Of a DNA stretch of 64,000 nucleotides, positions 15,094-26,861 are shown piece after piece (within the stretch, counting starts at the first letter, position 1; each line of letters opens with the position of its first letter). The stretch lies in contig JBGAHS010000003.1 of NCBI GenBank assembly GCA_044226015.1, positions 64,001 to 128,000 on the forward strand. Direction: 5' to 3'. Origin of the DNA: Candidatus Obscuribacteraceae bacterium (GTDB taxonomy: Bacteria > Cyanobacteriota > Vampirovibrionia > Obscuribacterales > Obscuribacteraceae). The notes beneath the pieces were generated by a model. It was not told the DNA's origin, did no database searches, and worked only from the letters and a program-made list of their open reading frames with translations. The position numbers were made by a program, and so were the translations under genes.

Positions 15094-17010
15094 ATGGGCG
15101 TAACGCAAGAAATCGATCACAGGGCCAGCAAGGACAGTGGTGCCGAAAAGCTCACTGGCAATTCCGATGCTAATGGAATTGCTCTAGACGCTGGAAAAAT
15201 TTGGATGACTCTGGCTGCCGCGCACGACCATGGTCAAAAATCGCCTCGAATACCTGGCTTACCCGATCTTGATGTTCACAGCAAGGCCGAATCAAATCCC
15301 GACAACAAGGGTCACCACACCGTCGCAGAGGAGATGCTGGACGACCTGAACACTCTTATGCAAACCAATGGCAAGGTTGATGTTCTGAATCAGCAAGCAG
15401 CCAAATCGCTCGACGGAACTCACAAAAACGGAGACCTACCAGTAATACAAACCGATAAGTTGCCGCCCGGCAAAATCGGAATCATCATGACTAAAAACCC
15501 TGATGGTCACACGTACTACACACCATTCATTTCTGCTGGCGGCGACGCACAAGCACGACCAGACTCATCAATAAAAATCAACGACTCAGCTGCACGAGAG
15601 CTAAAAATTGATGAGGCACTGAAGAAAGGTCAAAATCCCAAGCTTGATATTTTTGCTTTCAATTTAGAAGATGACGAAAGGCACGGCATTATCATGCCGC
15701 GCACGAAGGACGACTTGCATGAGTTAGTGCTGGAGAAGCTCCATAATCTTGCCGAGGATGAAAGAGAGAGAATTGCTCTTGAGCGAGTTAAGGAACAACA
15801 AACACGTCCTGAAGCACCAAAGCCAGATCCTGAATTTGGATATCGCAGAACCGAAAGAAGCCCAGAAGAACTGCGCAAAATATCCGAAGACTTCGCAAAA
15901 CAAGCACGGGCATTCATGGATGCAGCTGAACCAGCTGGCATTCAAGAGCGAATGAAAGCCGCAGAACAACAAGCACAAAAGGAAATCACACAGTATCAAG
16001 GCGAACTGAACAAAAAGGCAGCGGAGGAAACTCGCGCAGTTAGAGAAGCCTCACGCCTTGAAAAACAGGCTCAACAAATACTAAATCCTGAAAGCGACAA
16101 GGCCAAGAAGCTGGCGCCACGGGTTTCAGCAGCTCAGGAAAAAGCTGAGGCTGCCACCACTGCCAAACAACTCGCGGATTACAATTTATCGTATGCACAG
16201 CAGGAATTGAGAATTTCCAAAGACGAAGCTCTATTCACCAGACACATGCAAGCCAAGGCAAGTGCAGCGGCGATCATGTCATTGAACCCCGATATGGAAG
16301 GGGCGCTCAAAGGTCACAGATTCGTGTTGAACGCCGGCCACTATCCAGAAGATCCGAAATTTCCGGGATTCGAATATGACGGCACAGCAGAATGGAAGCT
16401 CAACCACGAATCAGAAGATGTGGCCGGCGCTATGGTCAAAATGGCCGGTGGAGCAGTTAAGTTAGTCAACCAAGCAGATCTCAAAGACCGCACCATGACT
16501 GGACTTGCCAATGCAATCAAAGCTGCGAAGCCAGAGGTAGCAGTGGGAATTCACCACGATGATGGCGAAAATAGAGAAGCCGACATCATGAAAGGCACAC
16601 TCACACTTGAGTGCGGTAAAACTACAGGAGCATGGAGCACAGACTTTGCCAACGCAGCGCACATGGCAAAACTGAACTATGCAGGTCTGCCGGAAAAGGT
16701 CAACAAGAACGGCGTTCCTGTTGGAATTCGTGAGCAATGCGGCAGAGGCGTACAAGGCAGAAATGTTGGCGCTCCATTCATTCTCGATGAACAGCTTTCA
16801 ACACAGAAGGACATGTGGAAGCTGGCTCGCGATCCGAAAGCAAATGCACAAATTCAATTTGCAAGAGTGGTGGCATTCTACGAATACGTAAACAAAATGC
16901 CCAGATACAAAACGACTCCTGACACTGCACAAGAATACAAAGACAAGATCTGGAGCAAAACCACAGTAGACGATGTCTTCAAGCGTCACCCCAAAGTTGG
17001 TGACTGGTAA
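15094..17010 (+). CDS. Coiled-coil protein with a C-terminal N-acetylmuramoyl-L-alanine amidase (Amidase_3-like) domain
   Basis: FVLNAGH, AEWKLN, VAVGIHHD, PFILDE give the H/E/H/E pattern; no signal peptide. Confidence 0.7.
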   Translation: MGVTQEIDHRASKDSGAEKLTGNSDANGIALDAGKIWMTLAAAHDHGQKSPRIPGLPDLDVHSKAESNPDNKGHHTVAEEMLDDLNTLMQTNGKVDVLNQQAAKSLDGTHKNGDLPVIQTDKLPPGKIGIIMTKNPDGHTYYTPFISAGGDAQARPDSSIKINDSAARELKIDEALKKGQNPKLDIFAFNLEDDERHGIIMPRTKDDLHELVLEKLHNLAEDERERIALERVKEQQTRPEAPKPDPEFGYRRTERSPEELRKISEDFAKQARAFMDAAEPAGIQERMKAAEQQAQKEITQYQGELNKKAAEETRAVREASRLEKQAQQILNPESDKAKKLAPRVSAAQEKAEAATTAKQLADYNLSYAQQELRISKDEALFTRHMQAKASAAAIMSLNPDMEGALKGHRFVLNAGHYPEDPKFPGFEYDGTAEWKLNHESEDVAGAMVKMAGGAVKLVNQADLKDRTMTGLANAIKAAKPEVAVGIHHDDGENREADIMKGTLTLECGKTTGAWSTDFANAAHMAKLNYAGLPEKVNKNGVPVGIREQCGRGVQGRNVGAPFILDEQLSTQKDMWKLARDPKANAQIQFARVVAFYEYVNKMPRYKTTPDTAQEYKDKIWSKTTVDDVFKRHPKVGDW

Positions 17011-17088
17011 GTCTAGGGTTAACCCCAGTCCACTTGAGCGCAAATCCCATAACGCATTCGCTCTGGCATGCCAGAATGGAAGTGAGCC

Positions 17089-19722
17089 TTGGCGTGCTCA
17101 CGACCCGCAATTCTGGCGAGAACAATGGAATACATTCGCGCGCCTGAACCGTTGGTTCAGTTGATTATGCTGTCAATTTTCATGTTTCTGTCCGGCTACC
17201 AATTCGGTAAGCGGGCGCTACCGACAGGCAATTCAAACCACACAATAGCACAACAGACTCCGAAACAAAGACGACCACCACGCAAACATCTTAACAGCTG
17301 GCTCTTACCAAACATCAAGCTCCTCAGAGTTGAACCGAGTCCAGCACAGTCCAAACATGAGAACATTGACCAACGGCGGGAAAGATACATAGGCGAATTC
17401 CAACAGATTGAAAATGAGCGCCGACGAATTGCAAAGGAACTGCACGACGAAATACTTCCCCAACTATCAAGGTTAAAACGAAAACTTGAGAAAGCGGAAG
17501 CAAGCGAAACGCAGCAACTAAGCATTTCAACCCTGCACATATGCATAGACGCTTTCAGAGATCTTCTCGGCGAATTACATCCGGTAGATCTGGAAGAGTT
17601 TGGATTGGTCTCAGCCATCAGCAACATTTGCAGCCGACATGCTCGCCTCACAGGACTTCTAATCAACTGCATCGAACGCATTGAAGACTTCAATCTGTCA
17701 GATCAACAGGCGCTTTATCTGTACAGAGCATTTCAGATAGTAATGCAACTCTTCTCTTCATCTGGCAACGACATGCTTTTAGTCACTTGTGAGCGCACAG
17801 GCTCCTCGCAAAACCAAAACCAGATAACGCTTAGATCCATAGACCGCAGAGTTGAAAGCGCAGACTGGCTCGGCGAAGGTATGCCAGGCTTCCTAGAATT
17901 CGAAATGCTGTGTGAAATAGCAGGAGCAAAAGTAGAGTTTAACCAAAAACGCAAAGACGGCTACCCCATCGACATTGTTTTAACATTCAGTGCTGCCAAT
18001 GAAAGCTCCGGCAAAGGGCTTGGAAAAACAACAGCTCACGAAGCTCTTCCGGATCTCATAGCGCTAACAGACTCCAGAGCTCTTAGAGAATCCGCAGCCC
18101 TAACAGACGACTCCGTAGCTCTAACAGATCACGCAACCCAAACAGACGACTCCGTAGCTCTCACAGAGTCCGCAGCCCTAACGGATCCCATAGCTCTTCC
18201 AGACTCCGCAGCTCTTACAGAGTCCGCAGCCCTAACGGATCCCATAGCTCTTCCAGACTCCGCAGCTCTTACAGAGTCCGCAGCCCTAGCGGATCCCGCA
18301 GCCCTAACGGATCCCGTAGCTCTTCCAGACTCCGCAGCTCTTACAGAGTCCGCAGCTCTTACAGAGTCCGCAGCCCTAGCGGATCCCGCAGCCCTAACAG
18401 ACGACTCCGTAGCTCTAACAGACGACTCCGTAGCTCTAACAGATCCCGCAACCCTAACAGACGACTCCGTAGCTCTAACAGATCCCGCAACCCTAACAGA
18501 CGACTCCGTAGCTCTCACAGAGTCCGCAGCCCTAACAGACTCCAGAGCTCCTAGAGAATCCGCAGCCCTAACGGATCCCGTAGCTCTTCCAGACTCCGCA
18601 GCCCTAACAGACTCCACCGCTCTTAGAGAATCCGCAGCTCTTACAGAGTCCGCAGCCCTAGCGGATCCCATAGCCCTAACGGATCCCGTAGCTCTTCCAG
18701 ACTCCACAGCTCTTACAGAGTCCGCAGCCCTAGCGGATCACGTAACTCTTCCAGACTCCACAGCTCTTACAGAGTCCGCAGCCCTAGCGGATCACGTAGC
18801 TCTTCCAGAGTCCAAAACTATTTGGTTGAACTGCAAAAAGGGATACACACAAGTAACACGCTACGCAAAAGTAATCGGCTCTCCTCAAGAAACAAAAGCC
18901 ACAGAAGCTGCACGAATTGCGAATAGCGGTTCCACCACATCAAACGGATCAGCACAAGCAAACGGATCAGCACAAGCAAACGGATCAGCACAAGCAAACG
19001 GATCAACACGACCGCAGGCAACCGAGTCAACAGGTATAAACGCATCAAGCAAAAAAACAAGAACAAGCGGATTAACCGAACCTGCAGAACTCTCCTTGGA
19101 AGAAGAGCGAAATAGAATAACAAGGCTGATCAAGATCATGACCCTCCCGCAAATCGAAAGACTGTCACTCTGCGCCAGACAAAGTGAATCCGCTAAAGAC
19201 AATTCAATCAGCAGTTTTGTACAATCGATCCACTCCAGACTAGAAAATATTATCGCAAACCACCACCCGGCAGCTTTGTTCGACAAGACCATATCCTCGG
19301 CTATAAAAACACTGTTAGTGAATTTTCACCAGGCAACATGCACCTCATTCATAATGATTACGAGCCCAGCATTCCACGGCTTACAAGTCGACGTAGCTAC
19401 AACACTCGCTATCTATCGCATCACACAAGAAGCACTAAACAACATCGAAAAGCACTCTGATGCAAACTGTGTCCGCGTAACTGCCGTCGAACACGACGAG
19501 ATAATTGAATTCAATATTGAAGACGATGGTCGTGGCATCAGTCTCAAACCAGATCAAGAACACCGCGGACTGCGCATCATGAAGGAACGAGCAAGCGACA
19601 TAGGTGCAGAATTCAAAATTAGCACAGCATATAGTTTTGCACAGGGAACCCTGATTTCAATTTCGCTACCAAAGACGAAACTGCAGTCGAAGCTTAGGGA
19701 GAACCCCAAATCGTTCTTGTAG
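17089..19722 (+). CDS. NarX/HisKA_3-type histidine kinase with two tandem, complementarily degenerate kinase modules joined by a repeat linker
   Basis: One N-terminal TM; ERRRIAKELHDEILPQL (His codon 17443); C-terminal YRITQEALNNIEKHS, IEDDGRGI, GLRIMKERA; likely start ATG 17125. Confidence 0.85.
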   Translation: MACSRPAILARTMEYIRAPEPLVQLIMLSIFMFLSGYQFGKRALPTGNSNHTIAQQTPKQRRPPRKHLNSWLLPNIKLLRVEPSPAQSKHENIDQRRERYIGEFQQIENERRRIAKELHDEILPQLSRLKRKLEKAEASETQQLSISTLHICIDAFRDLLGELHPVDLEEFGLVSAISNICSRHARLTGLLINCIERIEDFNLSDQQALYLYRAFQIVMQLFSSSGNDMLLVTCERTGSSQNQNQITLRSIDRRVESADWLGEGMPGFLEFEMLCEIAGAKVEFNQKRKDGYPIDIVLTFSAANESSGKGLGKTTAHEALPDLIALTDSRALRESAALTDDSVALTDHATQTDDSVALTESAALTDPIALPDSAALTESAALTDPIALPDSAALTESAALADPAALTDPVALPDSAALTESAALTESAALADPAALTDDSVALTDDSVALTDPATLTDDSVALTDPATLTDDSVALTESAALTDSRAPRESAALTDPVALPDSAALTDSTALRESAALTESAALADPIALTDPVALPDSTALTESAALADHVTLPDSTALTESAALADHVALPESKTIWLNCKKGYTQVTRYAKVIGSPQETKATEAARIANSGSTTSNGSAQANGSAQANGSAQANGSTRPQATESTGINASSKKTRTSGLTEPAELSLEEERNRITRLIKIMTLPQIERLSLCARQSESAKDNSISSFVQSIHSRLENIIANHHPAALFDKTISSAIKTLLVNFHQATCTSFIMITSPAFHGLQVDVATTLAIYRITQEALNNIEKHSDANCVRVTAVEHDEIIEFNIEDDGRGISLKPDQEHRGLRIMKERASDIGAEFKISTAYSFAQGTLISISLPKTKLQSKLRENPKSFL
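18060..18810. repeat. In-frame 18/21-bp degenerate tandem repeat, ~40 units (ALTESA/ALTDPV/ALPDSA/ALTDDSV) inside the kinase
   Basis: gctcttacagagtccgca / gccctaacggatcccgta variants repeated. Confidence 0.95.
18943..19005. repeat. In-frame 18-bp repeat, 3.5 copies (NGSAQA)
   Basis: aacggatcagcacaagca at 18943, 18961, 18979, partial at 18997. Confidence 0.9.
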
Positions 19723-19813
19723 GGCTCCTCAGTAACAAGTCCAATCCAAATTGAAATAATCCAAATAGACCACTGGCGCAGACGACTCATAAGCGCCTGG
19801 CAAAGAGGATCCC

Positions 19814-20392
19814 ATGGCGCTGCTAAATATTCACACGAGAGAAATCGCTTGCAAGATTGTCTACTATGGCACCGGACTCGGTGGCAAAACAACCAACCTC
19901 AAATACATTTACAGTCAATTATCTCCTGTTACACGAACTGAAATGATAAGCCTCGCTACAGAAACTGAACGAACCCTATTCTTTGATTACATGGGGCTCG
20001 ACCTGGGTCAAGTTCAGGGATTCAAAACCAAATTTTCTCTTTATACTGTGCCGGGTCAGGTTGAGTATAACTCAAGTAGAAAACTACTCTTGAATGGCGT
20101 TGATGGAATTATATTTGTTGCAGACTCAGAACGAATACGCCAAAGAGAAAACATCGATTCTATCAAAAACATGAAAGAAAACATGCTCTCAGTCGGCATT
20201 ATGCCCGAATCAATTCCTATTGTCTTGCAATACAACAAGCGTGACCTTGCTCAAGTCATGAGCCTCGACGAACTGGAAAATGACCTGAATCCAAACAATG
20301 CCCCTAGTTTTGAAGCTGTAGCTTCCGATGGACTCGGCGTTTTCGCAACCCTACGACAAATAAGCAAATTAGTCTTGAACAGGTTACAATGA
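19814..20392 (+). CDS. mglA: MglA-family small Ras-like GTPase
   Basis: KIVYYGTGLGGKTTNL, TETERTLFFD, LYTVPGQV, GVDGIIFVADS, QYNKRDL, FEAVA. Confidence 0.92.
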   Translation: MALLNIHTREIACKIVYYGTGLGGKTTNLKYIYSQLSPVTRTEMISLATETERTLFFDYMGLDLGQVQGFKTKFSLYTVPGQVEYNSSRKLLLNGVDGIIFVADSERIRQRENIDSIKNMKENMLSVGIMPESIPIVLQYNKRDLAQVMSLDELENDLNPNNAPSFEAVASDGLGVFATLRQISKLVLNRLQ

Positions 20393-20447
20393 TTGTTGTC
20401 GTCAATAAAATTGCATCACTAGCGCCTGAGATTAAGGAGTAATCGCA

Positions 20448-21143
20448 GTGGGAATAGTTATTGCCGACGACCAGGACAGAGAGCGTATCTGGCTCAAGAA
20501 CTTACTCAGCAAACACCTCTCGCATATGGCTCCAATTTACGAAGCACAAGATGGAAGAGAAGCTATCGAACTTGTGCTTCAACACAAACCTCCAGTCGTT
20601 TTTCTAGATATCGAGATGCCAGTATTGTCCGGTATAAAAAGTGCCGAACAAATACTTCAAGCCCTTCCTCTCACCGGAATCATCATTTTGTCGCACCACT
20701 CGGACGAAGTCTTCGTGCGCAAGCTATGGAAACTGGTGCCAGCAGATGGCGCATTTGGCTACGTTTTGAAAGATTCTTCCGACCAACAAGTCATCGATGC
20801 AGCCAAAGCAGTCCTCGGTGGAGACTGCTGGATACATCCTCGAATCCAAAGAATCATCAGGCGGGCAGAAAGTGGCGCCACGGGTCTAACTGACGCAGAG
20901 TTCGAAGTCCTCGTCTACATAGCACTGGGCTTCACCGATAAAGCAATCGCTAAACGCCTTTACATTACAGAAAAGGCTGTGCAGGCTCGGCTGAAATGCC
21001 TCTATACAAAGTTCGGAATCCCAATGAAGGGTGTTTCCGAAGAAGACGAATACAACCATCGCTGCAGAGCGCTAAACATCTCATTCCGACGCGGTCTGAT
21101 CAATCGCGCAGAACTCGCAGACTGGGAAGACCAGATTGCTTGA
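20448..21143 (+). CDS. NarL/LuxR-family response regulator
   Basis: IADD, FLDIEMP, GYVLKD receiver motifs; LTDAEFEVLVYIALGFTDKAIAKRLYITEKAV HTH; AAGGAG RBS before GTG. Confidence 0.93.
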   Translation: MGIVIADDQDRERIWLKNLLSKHLSHMAPIYEAQDGREAIELVLQHKPPVVFLDIEMPVLSGIKSAEQILQALPLTGIIILSHHSDEVFVRKLWKLVPADGAFGYVLKDSSDQQVIDAAKAVLGGDCWIHPRIQRIIRRAESGATGLTDAEFEVLVYIALGFTDKAIAKRLYITEKAVQARLKCLYTKFGIPMKGVSEEDEYNHRCRALNISFRRGLINRAELADWEDQIA

Positions 21144-21188: not shown

Positions 21189-22595
21189 CTAAGAATTTGA
21201 TGGCATAAACGCAATCAAATGCCTGCTGGAACTTTGCTCCTGAGCACATGGCAAAGTCGCCCGCCAATTGTTCAACTGCTGATTCCTCACAGCTGCATTG
21301 CCTGTTCCGATTCCCAAGGAACGGAAGAAGTTTCGCGCAGTTGCAACCTCACACTCCAGGTCACAAACATCTTTTCCATCGAACCGGAAGTAAAAACTCA
21401 TTTGCGCGGCAATCGGTGTCAATAAAGCATTGTCACCATGCTTCTTAATCGTCTTTGAAAGCTTCAGTTTGGAAATCGGATCACTGGCAACCCAGGGAGA
21501 AATAAAAATGGATGCGTGAGCACTCGGAATATCAGAAAGCGCTGCAGATAGCCAGGAAAAGCTTCTCGTTGCCGGCAGCTGATCCACATTGATAGTGATC
21601 GCCCTGCGCTCATTTATTTGCATGCACCGCTCTGTAGAACGCAATACCTTATCGCGGAAAGATGGTTCCCAACCAAGAACTCCCACACTTCTCCAGTCTT
21701 TGTTCAGCTGAGAGCGATTGCCACACTTTCCAAACTCTTCTGAAATCAGCTGACGAACTTCACGCGCATTCAGAATTTTGGGCGTGACACCCAGCGTGAT
21801 CAGACGCTCTATAACTCCGTCAAGCACGCGTTTTACTTGAATCAAAGGGGGCAATTCATCTTTGTCCACAGAATTGTCTGTATTCAACTTTGTGACGACG
21901 ATATAGAGTTCAGACCGCTGCTGCCCAGAATCCGCTTCTGGAAAAATCAGTTGAAACCTGGCTTTTTCAAATCTTGCCAAATCCGCAAAGAGCATTTCCA
22001 ATAAAAGCGCTTGTGCATTTGTAGAAATACGGTGCGGAAGAGTGCACTTCAGAATGCGCTGCAGCTCGCCACCTCGTGCATGAATAATGCCATCTAAGTT
22101 GTCTTGCGGATCCTTTCCGCCAACATAGTCGAGTCGCAATCCAGCAATTTCGCTTGCGTTCTTCGGTGCAGCCATTAGCTCTCGTCGAGGAAATAAGCGC
22201 GAGAAAAGCAGCGGCGGCTGACGCCGAAAGAGTCGAGCCAGAAGGATGCTGTATGTGAAAAGAGATGACCCAAGAACGAGCCCTGCGGCCCAACTGTGCA
22301 ATAGCTGAGCACTCAAAAGCCCAAACGGTACACTCAGGGCAACAGCAAAACTGCCCAAAGCAAAAGAATCCATCTGGGGCTGACGGAGTGTTTTCTTCTC
22401 AGCCTGTTTTAGAATAAGCATCAAACGATTCCCTGCAACCGAGATCCTAGCAACAAAAGTTGCCCACCATATACGCCTATCTCGAAGGTACTTTGTATAT
22501 AGAAAATGTCGATACGGGTTTTTCCCCCAAATAGAAACGAGCCAATATCCACAGTCCTTTGCGGACTTAACACTTGTCACATCTTCCGACGACAC
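21189..22595 (-). CDS. Membrane protein resembling PrgI/TraC-like plus VirB4 N-terminal domains, without a P-loop ATPase
   Basis: Two TM helices; DGIIHARGGELQRILK...ELYIVV...VIERLITLGVTPKILNAREVRQLI; MQINERRAITINVDQLP...WLSAAL...ASIFISP; QQLNNWRATLP; start uncertain. Confidence 0.45.
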   Translation of the reverse strand: MSSEDVTSVKSAKDCGYWLVSIWGKNPYRHFLYTKYLRDRRIWWATFVARISVAGNRLMLILKQAEKKTLRQPQMDSFALGSFAVALSVPFGLLSAQLLHSWAAGLVLGSSLFTYSILLARLFRRQPPLLFSRLFPRRELMAAPKNASEIAGLRLDYVGGKDPQDNLDGIIHARGGELQRILKCTLPHRISTNAQALLLEMLFADLARFEKARFQLIFPEADSGQQRSELYIVVTKLNTDNSVDKDELPPLIQVKRVLDGVIERLITLGVTPKILNAREVRQLISEEFGKCGNRSQLNKDWRSVGVLGWEPSFRDKVLRSTERCMQINERRAITINVDQLPATRSFSWLSAALSDIPSAHASIFISPWVASDPISKLKLSKTIKKHGDNALLTPIAAQMSFYFRFDGKDVCDLECEVATARNFFRSLGIGTGNAAVRNQQLNNWRATLPCAQEQSSSRHLIAFMPSNS

Positions 22596-23765: not shown

Positions 23766-23876
23766 TCGCCCTGCATAAAAAATGTGACAAACACACATTC
23801 AAGAAGAGTGTTTCTTTCAGCACAAGGCTCGCAATTGCAAACCACAGGCGAGCACACCTCAATGGAGAACTTCTAT

Positions 23877-26861
23877 ATGGCAGGCGGACTAGACAAGGCA
23901 GAGCAGAGACGCGGCACCGACCATGAGGCAAGCGCTCAGGAAGCAAGGACTACCCTACAAGCAGAAAGCATGGAGAGCCGCTCGGGCAGCCGAGTCGGAA
24001 GCGATCAGGAAGCTGTAGTGCCATTAGATAAATTTGACATCAAGGTAACCCCAGCAGCGGACGGCACCGGCGTTTTAGACCTGAAACACACCAGCGGAAA
24101 AAATGCGTCACTAGTGGAAAAAATGAGTGTCGCCGGACAGTTGCTACAGGGAGCCGAGTACGCCGACCTCAAAGCAATTGTCGTACCCTATCGCACCGAT
24201 GCACTCGTCGTAGATAGGTCAAGCAACCCAACAGAACAAATAAGTCAGTTCAAAGGAATTGAACAGCGTCGCGAACAGCTCAAACCCGAAAAACAAATAG
24301 GAAAAGCTGATCAAATGAACATTCGACTCGAAAATGGAGTCGCAGAAATTAGCTATACAGGAAGTAAACCGGAAGCCGCTCTGAGATTTGCATTACGCGA
24401 ACCAAACGCAGTTAGATTGAATGTAAACGGCGTTGATATGGGATTGGTAGAACCGCTGGAAAAACGACTTGGACATAAACCGTCCAAACAAGAATTAAAG
24501 GAAGCTCTAGCGCAGCTCACCTCCGCAAAGAATGAGAGACCCGAGAGTGCTCCCGCAGCAGAGAAAGCCGCAGCTCCAGACATCGCTCCCGCACCAGAGA
24601 AAGACGCAGCTCCAGACATCGCTGCAGCACCAGAGAAAGCTGCAGCACCAGACATCGCTCCCGCACCAGAGAAAGCTGTAGCTCCAGACATCGCTCCCGC
24701 ACCAGATAAAGCCGCAGCTCCAGACATCGCTCCCGCACCAGATAAAGCTGCAGCACCAGACATCGCTCCCGCACCCGATAAAGCTGCAGCACCAGAAAGT
24801 GCTCCGGCAAAAGACAAAGCCGAAGAGAAAGCTCCACGTGCAAAGAGAGCAGACAAGGCTTCTGCCGCAAAGGAATCCACAAGCGAAACAACAGCGGACG
24901 CTGAAAAACCACCAGCTAGAAAAGCTAGGGCAGCAGAAAAATCGAAGCAAGCGGAGAAACCTGGCACCGGTGAAGAAGCACCAACAGAAGAGACCACTGT
25001 AAGAAAACGAAGCAGGCAGGGTCGCGGAAAGTCAGCTGAATCCACTTCAGGAAATGACGAGACCGCAAAAGAATCCAAGGCAGCACGTCAACGAGCACCA
25101 GAGAATGCGATCGCATCCGGCAAGACCGCGCCACCTCTTGCAATTGATGGCGCCGAACCTAAAGCAAGTAGACGCCGAACAAGAGCAGCTGCGCCAGCAA
25201 CCGAAGCAGCACCGACACCTTCACCTGCAGCGGAATCACCAAGTTTAGCGCTTGCTGGAGCGCCAGAAGCACCGCTTCCTCCAGAAGCAAAAACAACAGA
25301 CACACCGCTTCCAACCAACACCGCAGCAAATGGACCAGAAAGCAAAGCCACCACCGGCGAAACTCCTGCCCAACTTTCAATTGATGGTGCCGACAGTGGC
25401 AAAGCCGTAACTGGAATCATTTTAGGAGCCGAACCAACGCCAAGCGAATTGTTGGAATACTATGAGAAACGAGGAATCGCCCCACCGGAAGTGAAACTTG
25501 TCACCATAGATAGGGCTAGTGCCCCCCCAGAGCCGCACGAGGTAGAACTTTACAGTGAACTTCTCCTCTGGAACGCACCAGATGACCACTTGAAAGAGTC
25601 CGAGAAACAGCCTGAGCAAAAGCCACTAGGTTCGGCAAGCGAGGCACTACCCTCAGTGCTAATAGAGGATCCTTCACACCCCAACGAGCATGACACAGAG
25701 TTAGCAGCGCAAAATCCTCTCCGCTCACAAGACTCTCCTGCACAAGCAGAACCAGCAACCGACAGCAAATCTCAAACGGAAGGAAGCCAGCTAGTTGAAA
25801 CAAATGAACGATCAAGCACAGGAGACAGCATGCCAAATCAGAATAGAGAAAAGAATGCAGCCATCACCGATCGACCAATGACCACTTTCGCTGTGCGAAA
25901 CGAAAAAGTAGTTTTCGCTGACGGCACGGAAGTTCCTGCACGAATAGTCAATATCGAAGGACATGATGGCGAACGACGCTCACACCTTTTCATTGAGGAG
26001 TTTCCCGAGCAGAAGCAAGCAGCGAGTGGCGCTGAGCAACCGGCAGCTGACGCCGTTCAAGCACAAGAGCAATCCGCCAAAGGAGACGCAAAAACACAAG
26101 AAAGCAATGTGGAAAAATCAAGTCCGCAAGCCGAATCATTCCGCCAGGCACTGGGTTATACTCCAGTACAAAATGCAGATGGAACTGTAACGATGAAATT
26201 CGGTGGTGAGTCTGAAATACGTCCACTGGATCGAAAAGGACTGGTTGAGCGTGCCGGAGCAATTGAGGCGGAACTTTGGAGACGCCCAGTTAATGCTGAG
26301 TTCGAAGGTGCGACACCGGGGCAAATGCACAAGTACACCTTCAACCCACCACAAGAGCAAGCCGGTCCAAGATTTACATTAGGTGGAGTTCCAGTTGAGA
26401 TAATCACTCCGCCATTAGCGAGACCAGGTGTTTCCGATGAAACAGCGGCGATTCAACAAAGAGAATTCGTAGAACAGGTGATGAATCATCGAACACAAGA
26501 AGGTACAAACGAACCGGGGCAAGAAGTGCCTGCAATTAAAGAGGTTCCAGAATCAGCACAGCCACGCGAACGAAAAGCAGTCGCACCAAGCATTGTTACT
26601 CTAATGCGTGGCACTCCAGTTGAGTACCTGGCTCCCGAGATACAGGGACCATACGCTGACTCTGCAATTGCTCGTCCGAAAAATGCAGCAGAAATCGAAA
26701 GCAATATTGCAATGTACAGTGTGCACGAAACAGCACCTAGAGGATACGCCGAGCTGAAAGCTGAAGGCAAGAGAGCAATCTCAGCTGCAAAGGATAGAAT
26801 ATCAGCGCTCATGCTAGCCGCGTTCACGGCGATCGCGAAAAGCACTCAATACTCGCCTTAA
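23877..26861 (+). CDS. Large, mostly disordered Ala/Pro/Glu-rich hypothetical protein
   Basis: ORF open from 23784; GGAG RBS precedes ATG 23877; no signal peptide. Confidence 0.75.
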   Translation: MAGGLDKAEQRRGTDHEASAQEARTTLQAESMESRSGSRVGSDQEAVVPLDKFDIKVTPAADGTGVLDLKHTSGKNASLVEKMSVAGQLLQGAEYADLKAIVVPYRTDALVVDRSSNPTEQISQFKGIEQRREQLKPEKQIGKADQMNIRLENGVAEISYTGSKPEAALRFALREPNAVRLNVNGVDMGLVEPLEKRLGHKPSKQELKEALAQLTSAKNERPESAPAAEKAAAPDIAPAPEKDAAPDIAAAPEKAAAPDIAPAPEKAVAPDIAPAPDKAAAPDIAPAPDKAAAPDIAPAPDKAAAPESAPAKDKAEEKAPRAKRADKASAAKESTSETTADAEKPPARKARAAEKSKQAEKPGTGEEAPTEETTVRKRSRQGRGKSAESTSGNDETAKESKAARQRAPENAIASGKTAPPLAIDGAEPKASRRRTRAAAPATEAAPTPSPAAESPSLALAGAPEAPLPPEAKTTDTPLPTNTAANGPESKATTGETPAQLSIDGADSGKAVTGIILGAEPTPSELLEYYEKRGIAPPEVKLVTIDRASAPPEPHEVELYSELLLWNAPDDHLKESEKQPEQKPLGSASEALPSVLIEDPSHPNEHDTELAAQNPLRSQDSPAQAEPATDSKSQTEGSQLVETNERSSTGDSMPNQNREKNAAITDRPMTTFAVRNEKVVFADGTEVPARIVNIEGHDGERRSHLFIEEFPEQKQAASGAEQPAADAVQAQEQSAKGDAKTQESNVEKSSPQAESFRQALGYTPVQNADGTVTMKFGGESEIRPLDRKGLVERAGAIEAELWRRPVNAEFEGATPGQMHKYTFNPPQEQAGPRFTLGGVPVEIITPPLARPGVSDETAAIQQREFVEQVMNHRTQEGTNEPGQEVPAIKEVPESAQPRERKAVAPSIVTLMRGTPVEYLAPEIQGPYADSAIARPKNAAEIESNIAMYSVHETAPRGYAELKAEGKRAISAAKDRISALMLAAFTAIAKSTQYSP
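24549..24815. repeat. In-frame 36-bp tandem repeat, ~7 copies (APAPEKAAAPDI)
   Basis: gctcccgcaccagataaagccgcagctccagacatc variants. Confidence 0.92.

Follow-up and report, generated by a model that had tools for sequence, protein, structure and literature searches.

Two roles are known for the Ras-like GTPases of bacteria: polarity switches, in the form of the MglA/MglB module, and parts of conservons. According to the available text of PMC4316618, 59 of 449 MglA proteins are orphans, the neighborhoods of Group 1 MglA are variable apart from PATAN genes, and the conservons are described there without a response regulator, with no trio of kinase, MglA and NarL-type regulator appearing in that text; how signals of the conservon type reach transcription is, as far as the accessible part of PMC13343842 goes, poorly understood. 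A small third protein alongside a kinase and a NarL-type regulator is known from NreABC, where NreA inhibits NreB and NreC binds a GC-rich palindrome (PMC8139620 and PMC5694512, each in its available portion). Here we analyze a window of 64,000 nucleotides from the genome of a Candidatus Obscuribacteraceae bacterium (positions 64,001 to 128,000 of contig JBGAHS010000003.1, assembly GCA_044226015.1; hereafter, the source genome), in which a histidine kinase, a Group 1 MglA and a NarL-type response regulator are encoded by a compact three-gene cassette. Read from sequence, this conserved cassette has, in our estimation, an even chance of being a self-amplifying switch, in which the kinase would act through the regulator and a promoter box on the cassette's own genes and on MglA, the latter being the likely main output.

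The three open reading frames all lie on the forward strand and encode proteins of 877, 192 and 231 amino acids (Table 1), and their coordinates bear out the co-orientation and the gaps of 91 and 55 bp reported in the original prediction. Pfam assigns HisKA_3 and HATPase_c to the first protein, a small GTPase domain to the second, and Response_reg and GerE to the third. Conservation of the trio among relatives was the main test by which that prediction proposed to be refuted, and the trio is conserved: the cassette is present in 36 of the 104 Obscuribacterales family genomes surveyed, contiguous in 32 of them and broken by contig ends in the remaining 4. In this census, the first half of the kinase gave 34 matches at E<1e-40 and the regulator 35 matches at E<1e-108; the order kinase-mglA-regulator is unbroken in 32 of the 34 kinase-matching loci, a contig end truncates the regulator in G370, the cassette is split over contig ends in G007 and G409, and two further cassettes, in G371 and G412, have a kinase truncated at the contig start. 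Every kinase found in the 36 cassette genomes had mglA as its neighbor, and mglA adjoins the kinase or the regulator in all 36, while the genes flanking the cassette differ between genomes; the gene arrangement is well beyond chance expectation. Outside the family, a sample of 301 genomes from the phylum contains a related regulator (38-42% identity) in just 4 genomes besides the source genome, and no related kinase or MglA lies near it in the three of these four loci that were opened. A protein search recovers 105 close homologs of the kinase followed by a steep fall-off, and the few informative organism labels among these homologs are Obscuribacterales, Melainabacteria or cyanobacterial. One record titled as a Flavobacterium bin (L078) bears an Obscuribacterales-type cassette and is probably mislabeled or a mixed bin.

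Table 1. Features of the cassette and its promoters; positions are those of the window
Feature	Positions	Strand	Basis and remarks
P1 box, inverted repeat TAGGG-N4-CCCYA, upstream of kinase	17014..17027	+	position weight matrix; likely regulator site
Split-function tandem HisKA_3 (DesK/NarX-type) histidine kinase	17089..19722	+	Pfam, NCBIfam, alignments; alternative start ATG 17125
Kinase core 1 (approximate bounds)	17416..18000	+	DHp with phospho-acceptor His119 (LHDEILP) and degenerate ATPase domain
In-frame tandem repeat, ALTD/ALPD-type linker (~250 residues)	18060..18813	+	TRF: 39 copies, 18-bp unit
Kinase core 2 (approximate bounds)	19095..19680	+	His-less DHp-like hairpin and intact ATP-binding domain
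P2 box 1, TAGGG-N4-CCCCA, overlaps end of kinase gene	19695..19708	+	likely activator site for mglA and regulator
P2 box 2, weaker second copy, ~22 bp downstream	19716..19733	+	matches box 1 in the column consensus of 45 promoters
Extended -10-like element TG-n-AATAAT	19751..19760	+	constant spacing to box 1
Group 1 MglA small GTPase, cassette-specific paralog	19814..20392	+	motifs, tree, PDB matches
NarL/LuxR-type response regulator	20448..21143	+	Pfam, NCBIfam; D7/D8, D54, S82, K108, LuxR-type helix-turn-helix

The direction of control is suggested by the promoters. Upstream of mglA, the inverted repeat deviates from the TAGGG-N4-CCCYA consensus by at most 4 mismatches in 33 of 34 loci and by 5 in the 34th (the copies of G370 and G371 are left out of this count and of the MglA tree discussed below). 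A position weight matrix derived from these mglA-upstream sites alone scores 14 or more before the kinase in 34 of the 34 genomes in which that region is assembled, which provides an independent test, and gives 0 matches in the surroundings of other MglA genes, the recG-linked ones included (443 kb in all); in the source genome, the background of the box is 5 of 4849 upstream regions. The key columns of the -10-like element are 79-97% conserved over 34 loci, and it is the only sigma70-like site of the region with TG, the overall number of sigma70-like sites being equal to chance. A combined promoter model with three blocks, trained on 45 promoters from other genomes, recovers the mglA promoter as its sole match in the 8.2-Mb source genome (score 46, compared to maxima of 18.7 and 22.5 after shuffling); it misses P1 in this genome because the second copy and the -10 element are off-register there. 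Of the five strict sites in the source genome, two belong to the cassette, one precedes a paralogous kinase-regulator operon (C11:30286), and two are located elsewhere; the box also precedes related HisKA_3 kinases in relatives, and both placements fit a site that is recognized by this family of regulators. LuxR-family regulators bind inverted repeats (PMC5715377, available text), and the reader of the box would probably be the cassette regulator rather than another LuxR-type protein. Of the listed box matches, 65 loci in 15 relatives were inspected; the genes recurring most often beside them belong to this kinase family (10), are mglA (8) or encode VIT domains (6), and six further groups have two members each; among targets other than two-component genes, mglA alone has the box in essentially all cassette genomes. 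The conserved boxes before mglA and the kinase thus point to a path from the kinase through the regulator to transcription of mglA, and the GTPase, as the only constant target outside the two-component genes, is the likely output.

Several other occurrences of the box deserve mention in their own right. It is found before VIT-domain genes (L302, L305, L307, L311, L313, L355 and L360, one of them a clear VIT/vWA protein), also in genomes that lack the cassette, and these genes possibly represent an older regulon of the regulator family. In another cassette-less genome, a reverse transcriptase of 390 residues, whose C-terminus weakly matches WYL, is encoded 145 bp from a box (L361:1646-2815). 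In the source genome, the strict site C1:138101-138114 is located between a gene for a 214-residue protein with an HExxH-like motif and a divergent gene for a 455-residue GAF-LuxR-like protein, upstream of a 2-oxoacid:ferredoxin oxidoreductase-like operon (gene labels assigned by eye). A large regulon, which we considered, is unsupported: exact matches are at background, and the combined model gives one site.

The regulator is the most conserved member of the cassette, with orthologs 71-84% identical to the window protein and an invariant acidic pocket and phospho-Asp. Together, kinase and regulator display all the hallmarks of a HisKA_3/NarL pair, namely, the H-box His, the N, G1 and G2 boxes, the receiver Asp and Lys, and the LuxR-type helix-turn-helix, with the His and the ATP pocket residing on separate cores. 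Pairwise distances correlate strongly between kinase and regulator (r=0.93), compared to 0.68 for MglA with the kinase and 0.63 for MglA with the regulator, weak evidence because the kin compared are not independent. Within the clade, a single regulator (L080) is found by itself, with neither kinase nor mglA, and its C-terminus is altered; a second apparent case, G389, was ruled out as a carrier of the regulator without the cassette, its regulator grouping with the paralogs.

The original prediction described the kinase as asymmetric, and this holds in a pronounced form. Pfam places HisKA_3 at residues 110-167 and HATPase_c at residues 773-863, and the two cores show complementary losses across 100 aligned kinases. 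In core 1, the H-box His is retained in all 100, whereas the ATPase domain is missing the N-box Asn, whose positions are occupied by R/K and M/L, as well as the G1 glycines; features in the ESM Atlas still place this dead domain with HATPase_c (0.92-0.94). Core 2 has a His at the acceptor position in 3 of the 100 only, along with the N-box E in 100, the second N in 99, and the D, G and G of G1 in 100 each; in the window kinase, its motifs are QEALNN at residue 780, EDDGRG at 811 and the G2 box at 825. At the position of DxxxQ, which we take to be the phosphatase motif of the kinase, Pro replaces Gln in 100 of 100, and this Gln is likewise missing in paralogous kinases that have no MglA. The kinase of a relative (L045), as modeled with AlphaFold (pLDDT 84.6, pTM 0.65), consists of two cores, each a helical hairpin with an ATPase-like domain and both with an identical order of helices and strands; the top Foldseek matches are DesK and VraS.

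The kinase was also thought to be sensor-less, which is accurate for the fused forms but not for all. No transmembrane segment reaches the threshold in the fused kinases, with the exception of one borderline case, and the hydrophobicity peak of the window kinase's N-terminus, 1.57, is below that threshold. In G025 and G386, by contrast, the cores are encoded by two adjoining genes, each with predicted transmembrane segments, and ten half-length homologs have similar hydrophobic N-termini. The split halves fall within the fused kinases in a FastTree tree, so that the split form being ancestral is unsupported, even though both halves resemble former membrane-anchored kinases. The source genome additionally encodes one-core membrane or CHASE2-type kinases beside paralogous regulators, which are 59-61% identical to the cassette regulator and have similar helix-turn-helix regions, without mglA, and it is from such pairs that the cassette likely originated. 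The repeat linker of the kinase is private to the source genome, with no counterpart in the 32 other fused kinases aligned. Short in-frame tandem repeats are frequent in this genome (window 18060-19009 and 23784-26861; C11:926999-929152; AAP-rich and QGS-rich tracts), and the linker therefore looks like a habit of the genome and not a feature of the system.

By the criteria in the available text of PMC4316618, the cassette GTPase is, on its sequence, a Group 1 MglA: it has R53/T54, TVPGQ, GxxxxGK[T/S] and NKxD, and its 192 amino acids lie within the range of 150-240. In the PDB, the sequences it matches best are MglA chains (E 8e-66), on which R53 (ERTLFFD) and Q82 (TVPGQ) align in register, in agreement with the earlier claim that the intrinsic Arg and the catalytic Gln are kept; none of the 34 cassette copies departs from G1, R53, T54, Q82 or NKxD. 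In a quick IQ-TREE phylogeny, these 34 copies form one clade (SH-aLRT 98) that arises among the recG-linked copies, and the cassette MglA is, judging by this tree, a diverged duplicate of the recG-linked MglA, with a mean identity of 71% within the cassette set vs 93% within the recG-linked set. Of 12 pairs compared, 6 have a saturated dS; in the other 6, where dS could be measured, dN/dS is 0.007-0.04, and the cassette MglA is under strong purifying selection. The changes specific to this clade include those at residues 3-7, 33, 44, 61, 66, 71, 96 and 182-187, several of which lie near the allosteric pocket that, as described in the available text of PMC6785124, is formed by the beta2-beta3 loop and helix alpha5. 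Among the MglB-contact residues named in the same text, F56, F57 and L64 are present in 34 of 34 copies, F59 is Y in 17 and K181 is R in 10 of the 34, and position 185 is K/R and position 67 is V (I67 in PMC6785124).

The recG-linked MglA itself occurs across the order (L006, L009-L035 and L064-L075) without a roadblock neighbor and is, in effect, a lineage-wide orphan; its representative in the source genome (C1:246921-247499, L006), the second MglA of that genome, lies between hslO and recG and is 72% identical to the cassette copy. A third MglA clade is encoded directly behind a gene for a protein of ~540 amino acids (L055, L056, L058, L059 and L061), for which DUF4388/PATAN was confirmed on L056, so MglA has been duplicated into signaling contexts more than once in the family. 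A search of representative proteins with the MglA alignment returned generic MglA, and none of the five examined contained a recognizable kinase or regulator fusion.

The original prediction also put weight on an MglA without MglB. No Robl_LC7 match was detected on the window's contig (C6) and no mglB within four genes of the cassette mglA, although Robl_LC7 matches occur elsewhere; BLAST with three source-genome roadblocks, an insensitive test, likewise found no roadblock in the cassette loci. Missing MglB nevertheless does not make the cassette copy special, given that the recG-linked MglA is an orphan too, and the genome-wide search for mglB that had been proposed yields four Robl_LC7 matches, on C7 and C11. 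These comprise one stand-alone protein of 130 amino acids and three domains in two long proteins. The stand-alone roadblock (C11:931437-931829), near mutS, and the long Pro/Ala-rich proteins (C7:660-2483 and C11:563024-565741, one of them with two domains and a hydrophobic N-terminus) are all candidate GTPase-activating proteins (GAPs) for MglA. Among relatives, all five cassette genomes tested have Robl_LC7 matches on other contigs, in frames of similar sizes. Since most of the residues that contact MglB are retained, and since stand-alone roadblocks occur elsewhere in the genomes, a shared GAP is possible.

DesK-type kinases autophosphorylate in trans. In the cassette kinase, core 1 is seen to have the phospho-His and core 2 the ATP pocket; the two cores would form a fixed heterodimer in which core 2 serves as the trans-acting kinase of core 1, and the phosphate would then move, by analogy with the rest of the family, to Asp54 of the regulator. 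As the footprinting suggests, the phosphorylated regulator would activate P1, for the kinase, and P2, for mglA and the regulator, resulting in positive feedback, and the paralogous membrane or CHASE2 kinase-regulator pairs with the same box could start the loop. The induced MglA, presumably a working GTPase with a remodeled allosteric pocket, would act on effectors, the stand-alone roadblock possibly serving as its GAP.

A number of considerations weigh against this scheme. The reader of the box could be another LuxR-type protein, and a target gene need not sit between the kinase and the regulator; the position of mglA and its shared origin with the split kinase would be just as compatible with an accessory regulator. 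In the dead ATPase domain, R139, A140 and Q142 are invariant, which hints at a role in binding. Across the genome, the exact 14-mer does not exceed a reversed-pattern control, so that many of the other box matches may be due to chance.

The foremost alternative, to which we assign roughly one chance in three, is a GTPase-gated three-component system, in which MglA induced by the loop would feed back on the kinase, perhaps via its dead ATPase domain, or on the regulator, and would act as a gate or timer much as NreA does for NreB and NreC. The constant association of mglA with the kinase or the regulator in the cassette genomes, the single origin of both the MglA duplicate and the split kinase, and the conservation of the dead ATPase domain are all compatible with such a gate, as are the clade-specific changes at residues 3-7, 61, 66, 71 and 182-187, near the allosteric pocket (PMC6785124, available text), and conservons offer a precedent for coupling between a kinase and a GTPase (PMC4316618 and PMC13343842, in their available parts). 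The fused kinases, which have no clear transmembrane segments, would need some other input, and a kinase with Pro in place of the Gln of DxxxQ may need a helper for shut-off; however, the paralogous kinases that manage without MglA have lost the same Gln, and the membrane-anchored split forms L042 and L267 keep mglA, which also rules out, as a simple story, the notion that MglA replaced a lost sensor. Furthermore, the promoter of mglA also serves the regulator but does not serve the kinase, and the distances of MglA track those of the kinase less closely than the regulator's do, for what this weak evidence is worth. A complex prediction for a relative's kinase, regulator, GTP and MglA scored 0.29 against a mark of 0.32, without controls, and was used neither way. 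The original prediction's GTPase-gated switch therefore survives in part: the trio is conserved and the kinase asymmetric, but gating by MglA, or a role of the kinase's dead domain as a GAP or exchange factor, is unsupported, and the box points in the opposite direction. A more specific and still more tentative version is a latch, in which the dead ATPase domain would dock MglA, whose GTP/GDP state would set the output of the kinase to the mglA-inducing NarL regulator. MglA as output and MglA as gate can both be true.

An unlikely alternative to the self-amplifying switch is a downstream tier, in which the main reader of the box would be a paralogous regulator, of the C11 or C13 type, or some other LuxR-type protein, whereas the cassette's own regulator would control other genes through a different site and MglA would be merely co-induced. 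The box is indeed found in cassette-less genomes, before related kinases and VIT-domain genes, the paralogous regulators are 59-61% identical to the cassette regulator and resemble it in their helix-turn-helix regions, and the GAF-LuxR gene adjoins one of the strict sites in the source genome; yet both boxes are kept in essentially all cassette genomes, the cassette regulator is the best conserved of the three proteins, and the C13 operon of the source genome has no box upstream. Chance insertion of mglA between kinase and regulator, without a functional link, is largely refuted and can be given very little credence: the faster evolution of the cassette MglA, the long branch of its source-genome copy and the solitary regulator L080 would fit it, but they are set against strong purifying selection, invariant catalytic motifs, a conserved promoter of its own, and no loss of mglA among 36 cassette genomes.

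As for the immediate surroundings of the cassette, a gene for a 638-residue protein with a weak Amidase_3 match (window 15094-17010) lies upstream, as it does in G006 and G007, and an opposite-strand gene for a 468-residue protein without a Pfam match (window 21189-22595) lies downstream. The latter is found behind the cassette in G007 too, which supports the view that the contig-end pieces of that genome constitute one locus.

No prior description of the trio, the kinase or the box was found in the open-access literature, subscription journals not being covered, and to this extent the original claim of an undescribed system is upheld. The cassette MglA resembles the Group 1 MglA of Myxococcus and Thermus, as well as the orphans SofG and Bdellovibrio MglA, in having Arg53, TVPGQ and NKxD (PMC4316618, available text). 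Unlike the MglA/MglB module, however, the cassette has no coupled mglB, belongs to a fixed kinase-regulator unit, and is served by an activator-type promoter. The conservons, or AGPS (CvnA-D, Mfp), likewise cluster a histidine kinase with an MglA-family GTPase, and the GTPase is posited as the output in the available text of PMC4316618. However, conservons contain the roadblock CvnB, CvnC and a Group 2 GTPase but no response regulator, whereas the cassette combines a Group 1 GTPase and a NarL regulator with a split HisKA_3 kinase. The conservon order cvnA-B-C-D is not found in the cassette, which has no roadblock and no fourth conserved gene and does have a regulator, and the features of Group 2 GTPases (no Arg finger, GTPGQ, NxFD) are absent from the cassette MglA, which has R53, TVPGQ and NKRD instead.

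LiaFSR and VraTSR are three-component HisKA_3/NarL systems. In these and in NreABC, the third protein is a GAF or membrane protein, in contrast to the Ras-like GTPase of the cassette. DesK, the closest fold of the kinase core according to Foldseek, works with DesR through trans-autophosphorylation and paired strong and weak operator sites, much as proposed for the cassette; unlike the cassette kinase, DesK forms homodimers, carries a membrane sensor and has no GTPase beside it. In Rv0600c/Rv0601c, the ATP site is on one protein and the His on the other; the halves of the cassette kinase, unlike these proteins, are both full cores with DHp and an ATPase fold, have suffered complementary losses, are mostly fused, belong to HisKA_3, and are accompanied by a GTPase. 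This Mycobacterium tuberculosis system, Rv0600c/Rv0601c-TcrA, with two kinase genes and one regulator, is the nearest split kinase (PMC3544749, available text).

If the regulator drives its own genes along with MglA, two-component signaling would be tied to G-protein signaling; if, conversely, MglA gates the kinase, a classical pathway from a kinase to a DNA-binding regulator would be directly controlled by a Group 1 small GTPase. The unit is small and mostly soluble and has a defined box, which makes either direction of control testable. The kinase represents a natural experiment in asymmetry, a putative fixed heterodimer of a His core and an ATP core that comes either fused or as two membrane-anchored genes, and the box is a first candidate for the regulatory motif that this family of regulators uses in an uncultured lineage. 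Taken together with the described systems, each part of the cassette is of a known kind, but their combination, in which a Group 1 MglA accompanies a histidine kinase and a regulator that binds DNA within one compact and mostly soluble unit served by a defined promoter box, appears to be undescribed.

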